Origin: a virus
Taxonomy: Duplodnaviria > Heunggongvirae > Uroviricota > Caudoviricetes
Length of the DNA: 27,553 nucleotides
Virus record (IMG/VR): IMGVR_UViG_3300029653_000015
Strand: one strand, 5' to 3'
The position numbers and the translations under genes are program-made. Shown here in pieces: positions 9,291 to 9,955 of this stretch (within the stretch, counting starts at the first letter, position 1; every line of letters begins with the position of its first letter). The notes below the pieces were generated by a model that saw nothing but the letters and a program-made list of their open reading frames with translations, did not search any database and had not been told where the DNA came from.

Positions 9291-9536
9291 AGAAAAACCA
9301 GAGATAAAACAGCGCCAAAATATCGCGCATTAGACATGACAGAGCACGCCTTAAAGGTGGCAATCAGAACAATAGACCGCCATGCCGGAGAAGGATACGC
9401 GAAAGCACATCCCGAACTGATAAGCGCATTCATGGCAACGGCGGCGGCAAACTTTGCCACGCTGACAGAACGGGAGATTGCCGAAGCGGAACAGGTGACA
9501 ACCATCAACGTTAAAACCGGAGAGCAGACAGCATGA
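9285..9536 (+). CDS. hypothetical protein
   Basis: 83 aa with a GAGGTGAGGA RBS. Stop overlaps the SSB-like gene start. Confidence 0.45.
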   Translation: MTRKTRDKTAPKYRALDMTEHALKVAIRTIDRHAGEGYAKAHPELISAFMATAAANFATLTEREIAEAEQVTTINVKTGEQTA

Positions 9537-9955
9537 CAGCACAGATAGCGGCTTACGGGCGGCTGGTGGCTGACCCGCAGTTAAAGACCACCAGCAAGGG
9601 GACACAAATGGCGATGGCGAGTATGGCGGTTCCCCTGCCGTGCAGCCAGGCAGATGACGGAACGGCGACGATGTGGCTTTCTGTCCTGGCGTTTGGCAGA
9701 CAGGCCGATGCACTGGCAAAACACCACAAAGGCGAACTGGTGAGCGTGGCGGGTAACATGCAGGTAAGCCAGTGGACAGGCCATAACGGCGAAACGCGGC
9801 AGGGCTGGCAGGTTATCGCAGACAGCGTAATCAGTGCGCGAACGGCGCGACCGGGCGGCAAAAAAGGCCAACAGGGGCAGGCCACTGATGCACTGAACAG
9901 GGCAAAACAACAGGCGGGAAATGATGATCCGTACGGGGATAACATACCGTTTTAA
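9533..9955 (+). CDS. single-stranded DNA-binding protein-like (OB fold with SSB-type C-terminal tail)
   Basis: 140 aa. N-terminal IAAYGRLVADPQLKTTSKGTQMAMASMAV and WLSVLAFGRQADALA align in pattern with E. coli SSB (VILVGNLGQDPEVRY..., WHRVVLFGKLAEVA). The C-terminus DDPYGDNIPF mimics the SSB tail DFDDDIPF. Confidence 0.6.
   Translation: MTAQIAAYGRLVADPQLKTTSKGTQMAMASMAVPLPCSQADDGTATMWLSVLAFGRQADALAKHHKGELVSVAGNMQVSQWTGHNGETRQGWQVIADSVISARTARPGGKKGQQGQATDALNRAKQQAGNDDPYGDNIPF

Follow-up and report, generated by a model that had tools for sequence, protein, structure and literature searches.

A bacterial-type SSB family protein encoded beside the putative replication origin of a phage satellite in an Escherichia coli prophage terminase gene

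The helper-embedded arrangement of PICI-type phage satellites (HE-PICIs) was described in 2023 by Tommasini, Mageeney & Williams (PMC10111431). [quoted passage not shown]" (PMC10111431). A hallmark of the HE-PICIs is a doubled TGTATTGC on either side of the attP centre, about 81 bp upstream and about 132 bp downstream (PMC10111431). The SSB annotation of the protein analysed here is thus already known, both from its RefSeq name and from the listing of SSB among the replication-zone families (PMC10111431). In the literature searched for functional work, SSBs of PICIs turned up in this family listing alone.

The window analysed here is a 27,553-nt stretch of DNA (IMG/VR record IMGVR_UViG_3300029653_000015) from within a lambdoid E. 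coli prophage, with all prophage genes on the plus strand. Its large terminase gene is interrupted by an insertion of 10,435 bp, measured from attL core to attR core (3064-13498), whose genes are also all on the plus strand (Table 1). Joining the flanks at the core gives an uninterrupted terminase of 700 aa. The 800-bp empty site reconstructed in this way is 100% identical to uninterrupted genes annotated "terminase large subunit", and it is covered contiguously over at least 80% of its length in 1,934 genomes. Of 5,426 complete E. coli genomes, 28 carry the occupied attL junction. At the junctions, the insertion puts a TAG right after the core, and the ATG of the core opens the nuclease-domain ORF.

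The satellite is arranged in the order Integration, Bro, Replication (7372-9955) and Late (10589-13249) zones, the AlpA-like match being sub-threshold. Counterparts of this small HTH protein were seen at two of the loci described below: a homolog annotated as an HTH regulator in L002, and an AlpA family gene at the same position in L003. Several small ORFs lie between the Bro-N gene and the DUF4222 gene. PICI-type satellites rely on a helper phage to be induced, replicated and packaged, and no large terminase, portal or tail genes were found in this one. Judged by its sequence, the 10.4 kb element is a PICI-type phage satellite in the terL gene of its helper prophage, and the SSB-like protein was rightly taken in the preliminary description to be encoded by an element. 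The capsid fusion of the satellite and its prophage counterpart at 16078-18297 share 56% identity. Its DUF1441 protein resembles that of the helper solely in the C-terminal half, with 48% identity. Rfam, searched over the whole window at gathering thresholds, gave no match and so no C4/isrK-type immunity RNA, and a tRNA scan found none.

Table 1. Positions of the satellite, prophage and ssb features in the window
Feature	Position	Strand	Evidence or remark
Prophage DUF1441 small-terminase-like gene	1533-2072	+	
Prophage large terminase, 5' part (gpA ATPase domain)	2081-3073	+	GpA_ATPase, 275 bits; cut by the insertion
attL core CTGGATG, left satellite boundary	3064-3070	+	TAG stop at 3071-3073
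Satellite tyrosine integrase	3235-4473	+	Arm-DNA-bind_3, Phage_int_M, Phage_integrase
Small HTH protein, AlpA/excisionase position	4486-4689	+	HTH_17, 17.8 bits, below the cut-off of 27
Bro-N domain protein (Bro zone)	4749-5330	+	64.6 bits
DUF4222 protein	7372-7671	+	84.4 bits; directly 5' of the replicase gene
RepA-family helicase, satellite replicase	7668-9083	+	AAA_25, 151.5 bits; phrog_2850
Iteron cluster, putative satellite replication origin	9085-9284		A(A/G)GTGAG(G/A/T)A, 9 copies, both orientations
83-aa ORF	9285-9536	+	phrog_1231, 5e-50; stop overlaps the ssb start
ssb of the satellite	9533-9955	+	140 aa plus stop; ORF, Pfam SSB, TIGR00621, phrog_44
OB domain of the SSB, residues 1-103	9533-9841		
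Variable linker of the SSB, residues 104-130	9842-9922		
Conserved tip DDPYGDNIPF of the SSB, residues 131-140	9923-9952		
Hairpin CCGGGA-TTTT-TCCCGG followed by T7	9972-9995	+	17 nt past the ssb stop; read by eye
69-aa ORF of the satellite	10383-10592	+	
Satellite ClpP-like prohead protease/major capsid fusion	10589-12505	+	Late zone
Satellite DUF1441 protein, small-terminase-like	12677-13249	+	Late zone; 122.1 bits; phrog_141 terminase small subunit
attR core CTGGATG, right satellite boundary	13492-13498	+	
Prophage large terminase, 3' part (gpA nuclease domain)	13496-14608	+	GpA_nuclease, 282.4 bits

Compared with the PICIs and HE-PICIs of PMC10111431, the satellite has the same gene order (Int, AlpA/HTH, Bro, ..., DUF4222, replicase, SSB, small ORF, capsid...). 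Its size fits that of the HE-PICIs, it lies inside gene A (terL) of a lambdoid prophage, and it is likewise co-oriented with the interrupted late gene. It is flanked upstream by the DUF1441 terS gene and downstream, beyond the nuclease part of the terminase, by a lambda-family portal, a ClpP/capsid fusion, gpZ, the tape measure and minor tail genes, all on the plus strand. The gene-A sites in PMC10111431 belong to the Terminase_1 family, whereas the site occupied here is in a gpA-type gene, between the ATPase and nuclease domains. The replicase is a RepA/AAA_25 helicase and not a primase as in PMC10111431.

The att core CTGGATG was not found in the accessible att files of PMC10111431, nor was the gpA-type site in the accessible parts of its text and supplements. 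Matches to "cctggatgg" in the same accessible material were rejected as incidental flanking sequence of a Terminase_1 site. With up to one mismatch allowed, TGTATTGC was absent from either attP arm, and it occurred 25 times window-wide against 26 expected. The attP arms carry TTTATCGCTT and GGACTA repeats instead. It is doubtful that this satellite belongs to the integrase clade surveyed by PMC10111431, related to 11capE, and the gpA-type site may be a further site, or mark a further integrase lineage, with the same lifestyle.

The ssb gene has an ATG start, 140 codons and a TAA stop, and its product ends in ...AGNDDPYGDNIPF. GGAG is found 9-10 nt 5' of the ATG. The ATG and the TGA stop of the preceding 83-aa ORF overlap as ATGA, which suggests translational coupling. 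The gene is the last of the satellite replication module, and the hairpin behind it looks like an intrinsic terminator, which would close the replication operon. This hairpin was also recovered as a repeat in the repeat listing; a consensus promoter/terminator scan of 9000-10700 did not list it and gave no promoter-like site. Two minus-strand ORFs across ssb (9553-9945 and 9581-9910) were rejected as shadow ORFs, since the family match sits in the plus-strand frame.

To call the product SSB-like, as the preliminary description did, is borne out by profile searches. It scored 57.3 bits against Pfam SSB (PF00436; cut-off 26), over profile positions 4-101 of 104, and 58.8 bits against TIGR00621 (curated cut-off 53.95), and it matched phrog_44, "single strand DNA binding protein", at 7.7e-39. 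All 15 NCBIfam matches were SSB models and none was PriB, and 26 of the 27 matches in a PDB sequence search were SSBs. An AlphaFold2 model was built on 20 family members. In this model, residues 1-103 (pLDDT 80-92) follow the order strand-strand-strand-helix-strand-strand of the OB fold, and the 37-residue tail, residues 104-140, has a pLDDT below 50; the linker is probably flexible. When the model was compared with the PDB by Foldseek, each of the top 50 matches was an OB domain of a bacterial SSB (E about 1e-9 to 1e-7, target-normalised TM 0.65-0.80). The OB fold was thus found by profile and by structure prediction, and the ORF is, by family and predicted fold, a genuine bacterial-type SSB.

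To compare the protein with E. coli SSB (PDB 1EQQ/1EYG), we used the E. coli sequence and its residue numbering; the length of 178 agrees with 1eqq_A. Both proteins start with the OB fold and continue through a flexible linker into an acidic tip that ends in I-P-F. The satellite protein is shorter (140 versus 178 aa) and is 25% identical to E. coli SSB over the OB domain (BLASTP). In the BLASTP alignment, W54, F60 and W88 of E. coli SSB pair with W48, F54 and W81 of the satellite SSB, which are invariant in the family alignment, and W40 pairs with Q39, so three of the four ssDNA-stacking aromatics are kept. Bacterial SSBs are homotetramers, or dimers of chains with two OB domains, and bind ssDNA cooperatively; His55, which is linked to tetramer stability in E. 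coli SSB, aligns with Leu49. The changes at W40 and His55 suggest that the binding mode and oligomeric state may differ from those of E. coli SSB. In the satellite protein, strands 2 and 3 are joined by a loop that is shorter by five residues, and the linker is basic and of about 27 residues, whereas that of E. coli SSB has about 55 residues and is Gly/Gln/Pro-rich. Apart from one of the four aromatics, every feature tested places the protein in the bacterial SSB family.

The tail had also been described as mimicking the C terminus (SSB-Ct) of bacterial SSB. This stands for the arrangement, as acidic residues are followed by I-P-F-COOH, in keeping with the terminal [I/L]-P-F of the SSB-Ct motif, and less well for the charge: the ten residues DDPYGDNIPF hold three acidic residues, one fewer than the four in MDFDDDIPF, with which E. 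coli SSB ends. Compared with the E. coli tip PMDFDDDIPF, the aromatic at -7, the Asp at -5 and I-P-F are common to both, and two Asp of E. coli SSB are replaced by Gly and Asn.

Among the 120 best listed homologs, 108 end in IPF and 112 in PF; most of the others are partial entries, or their ends are shorter or of another kind. The family tip pattern is D-D-P-[Y/F/W]-x-D-x-I-P-F. The stretch before the tip is swapped or resized by indels, and homolog lengths range from 110 to 220 aa. Tip statistics were taken from 104 full-length homologs pre-selected to end in F, which fixes position -1. In this F-ending set, D at -5 is invariant, I at -3 is present in 99 and P at -2 in 101. Mean entropy comes to 0.18 bits over the last three residues and 0.61 over the last ten; the OB core has 0.80, and the 15 residues that precede the tip have 1.78. 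The last 10 ssb codons of the window and of L004 (see below) differ by 6 synonymous changes and 1 non-synonymous change. The low entropy and the synonymous excess show that the tip is under purifying selection; the linker varies. On these alignments, the IPF tail is not a chance ending.

Directly upstream of the 83-aa ORF lies the iteron cluster. The iteron pattern matched 11 times in the window, 9 of them within 9085-9284, against 1.38 expected window-wide, and a count of 11 was reached in 0 of 100 shuffles. The 83-aa ORF had no match in Pfam, NCBIfam, PDB or PADLOC; single-sequence AlphaFold2 gave a modest helical bundle (pLDDT 73, pTM 0.39).

The ssb gene is widespread in E. coli. It was found in 1,544 (megablast) or 1,819 (blastn) of the 5,426 complete genomes, about a third, almost always on the chromosome and annotated in RefSeq as "single-stranded DNA-binding protein". 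At a coverage of at least 80%, roughly 1,200 genomes carry an intact ORF. Clusters of the protein contain up to 1,207 member sequences, and proteins 97-99% identical to it already bear the name SSB in public databases.

We examined five other loci with this gene. L001 is a PICI at tRNA-Pro whose replicase counterpart has the RefSeq name "helicase RepA family protein" and whose iteron is AAAGTGGG. L002 is an island in the same terL site as the satellite of the window, with a "DNA primase family" protein and the iteron GGTGAACAG. L003, from ATCC 25922, is again a PICI at tRNA-Pro, with a lambda-E-type capsid, a P4-family primase and the iteron GGTAGA(C/T)A. L004, from O157:H7, resembles the capsid-forming PICIs; it carries HK97 capsid, protease, portal, connectors and both terminase subunits, and it combines DUF927 with the iteron GCGGGTTAT. 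L005 is an island without capsid genes that encodes TOPRIM-DUF927, has the iteron TGAGACAACA, and whose SSB ends in ...PPFDDETPF.

Counting the HE-PICI of the window, all six loci have the order replicase, intergenic iteron cluster, (small ORF), ssb, whatever the type of replicase. The 83-aa ORF is conserved with ssb in 4 of the 5 other loci, and the DUF4222 gene has the same position in L001-L004. The iteron sequence differs locus by locus at the same position, and ssb is conserved. Replicase and origin thus travel as specific cassettes, with the SSB as a constant accessory that is in most cases joined by the small ORF.

We consider it probable that the protein acts as the satellite's own SSB, which coats single-stranded DNA at the origin and whose tip brings in replisome partners from the host. 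This reading draws on the profiles, the fold, the conservation of the tail, the position beside the origin and the link to interchangeable replicase/origin cassettes. After induction, the satellite replicase would open the adjacent iteron origin, and the SSB, probably co-translated with the 83-aa protein, would coat the exposed single strands. The tip would recruit host proteins that read the SSB-Ct, such as the chi subunit of Pol III, PriA and DnaG, and possibly also the satellite's own replicase. The host replisome would then assemble on satellite DNA. For the satellite SSB, we infer ssDNA binding, oligomeric state, tail-partner interactions and the contribution to replication.

The host already has abundant SSB, which leaves room for a role besides or beyond plain origin support. 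A more speculative and rather unlikely reading is that the private SSB is a universal adaptor, whose host-like tip would plug the interchangeable replicase/origin cassettes into the host replisome and would also capture SSB-Ct-dependent proteins of the helper, for example its annealase. If so, the SSB would be both a replication factor and a tool for interfering with the helper.

It is unlikely that the tail, and not DNA coating, is the main selected function. The SSB would then titrate or redirect host exonucleases, helicases or a RecT/Red-beta-type annealase of the helper, and replication and recombination would be biased towards the satellite, or the helper would be damped. This agrees with the tip being the best-conserved part outside the OB core, and with the host having an SSB of its own. 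It also agrees with the reported dependence of phage annealases on the C-terminal tail of host SSB (10.1101/2020.04.14.041095, PMC13490951), and with the known interference of PICIs with their helpers (PMC10111431). However, the OB core is conserved and its DNA-stacking aromatics are invariant, which a pure decoy would not need, and ssb is always at the origin inside the replication module. Interference and replication support could also operate side by side, neither taking the place of the other.

A role in defence is very improbable. Here the SSB would be a decoy or shield against immunity that senses foreign SSBs or SSB-bound ssDNA or, in an alternative form, part of satellite-mediated immunity against other phages. 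Retron-Eco8, DARNA and DRT10 are reportedly triggered by phage SSBs, and PICIs often carry defence genes. In contrast, PADLOC, applied to ten island proteins, gave one weak match (18.9 bits), to the HTH protein at 4486-4689, and none for the SSB, the 83-aa ORF, the helicase or the six remaining proteins. The ssb gene is in the replication zone and not in the variable accessory zones, and it is syntenic with replicase and origin in 6 of 6 loci.

PriB, an OB domain of about 100 aa that also belongs to Pfam PF00436, is not known to have a linker or an IPF tip. That the protein is a PriB-like primosomal OB protein or a decaying remnant and not a working SSB, as its 25% identity to E. coli SSB and its length below the 178 aa of the host protein might indicate, is hardly credible, and both readings were rejected because all 15 NCBIfam matches are SSB models, the 140-aa protein keeps its linker and an IPF tip under selection, and the ORF is widely conserved, being intact in roughly 1,200 genomes.

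The useful result is the context of the gene: in E. coli phage satellites, replicase/origin cassettes are swapped and a distinct SSB lineage stays constant beside them. The reason why a 10 kb parasite of a parasite has its own SSB could show replisome recruitment or competition with the helper. Such an answer would be a modest contribution to satellite biology.

Plasmid SSBs, such as F-plasmid Ssb, are also SSB copies of mobile elements that keep the host-type tip. They are near kin of chromosomal SSB and lie in conjugative leading regions. In contrast, the satellite SSB is distant from E. coli SSB (25% identity), and 3 of its 2,370 matched places are on plasmids. The PHROG 44 phage SSBs, for example from siphoviruses of Staphylococcus, Streptococcus and Lactococcus, have the family profile and a length of about 140 aa in common with the satellite SSB, and are 27-31% identical to it over the full length. 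No close phage homolog was found among 50,697 phage records (all below 60%, best 31% identity), which suggests that this SSB lineage is specific to these satellites. At the six loci examined, it was met only in satellite-type islands.

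The satellite interrupts the large terminase gene of its helper, the surrounding lambdoid prophage, at the point where the ATPase domain meets the nuclease domain, with CTGGATG as the core. A TAG stop directly 3′ of the att core (3064-3073) is brought by the insertion and closes a 330-aa ATPase-domain ORF. On the other side, an ATG within the attR core (13492-13498) is the start of a 370-aa nuclease-domain ORF. When 5,426 complete E. coli genomes were searched, the occupied junction was found in 28 and the uninterrupted site in at least 1,934.

Features of the satellite, its helper and five other E. 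coli islands carrying ssb (L001-L005)
Feature	Locus	Coordinates	Strand	Remark
PICI-type satellite, 10.4 kb	window	3064-13498		flanks 2081-3073 and 13496-14608, gpA-type large terminase gene
83-aa protein, phrog_1231	window	9285-9536	+	ATGA overlap with ssb
Iteron cluster	window	9085-9284		
Iteron cluster	L001	17550-18001		
Iteron cluster	L002	9176-9706		
Iteron cluster	L003	8438-9001		
Iteron cluster	L004	8382-9001		
Iteron cluster	L005	8612-9001		
PerC-family regulator gene	L004	9422-9694		immediately after ssb
PerC-family regulator gene	L005	9474-9785		immediately after ssb
ClpP-protease/major-capsid fusion	window	10589-12505		helper counterpart 16078-18297
DUF1441 small-terminase-like protein	window	12677-13249		helper counterpart 1533-2072

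In every island compared, the stretch that separates the replicase gene from ssb holds iterons, densely clustered and specific to that locus. Their sequence changes with the replicase type, but ssb and the small ORF upstream of it stay conserved, which suggests that replicase and origin are swapped together as cassettes. Of the five other loci, four retain the small ORF alongside ssb, and the overlap of the two genes in the window suggests that they are translationally coupled. Its product had no match in Pfam, NCBIfam, PDB or PADLOC; a single-sequence model gave a helical bundle with modest confidence. This protein could be a partner of SSB or of the replicase.

A few natural SSB homologs, including P0050 and P0060 of the 120 listed, end in ISF or LSF, not IPF. 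The classical E. coli ssb-113 allele carries the same Pro-to-Ser change. After ssb, the window has no PerC-family regulator gene, unlike L004, an O157:H7 island resembling capsid-forming PICIs, and L005, an island without capsid genes.

A ClpP-protease/major-capsid fusion is encoded by the satellite itself and shares 56% identity with the helper counterpart. The likeness of the two DUF1441 proteins is limited to the C-terminal half (48% identity). Taken together, these protein comparisons are consistent with satellite-specific DNA recognition and a retained contact with the helper machinery.

The satellite-within-terminase layout is that of the published helper-embedded PICIs (HE-PICIs; PMC10111431). 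A doubled TGTATTGC motif is reported there as unique to HE-PICI attP sites. We reconstructed attP by joining 13235-13498 to 3071-3330, and the doubled motif was absent from it. Instead, TTTATCGCTT is present at about -100 and +108 from the core, and GGACTA-type repeats at about -72 and +130/+145. Judged from these arm sequences, this suggests that the satellite may have an integrase or arm-site lineage different from that of HE-PICIs with the doubled motif. The gpA-type terminase site was not found among the sites named in PMC10111431. The gene-A sites of those HE-PICIs lie within Terminase_1-family proteins, whereas the satellite in the window occupies a gpA-type terminase.
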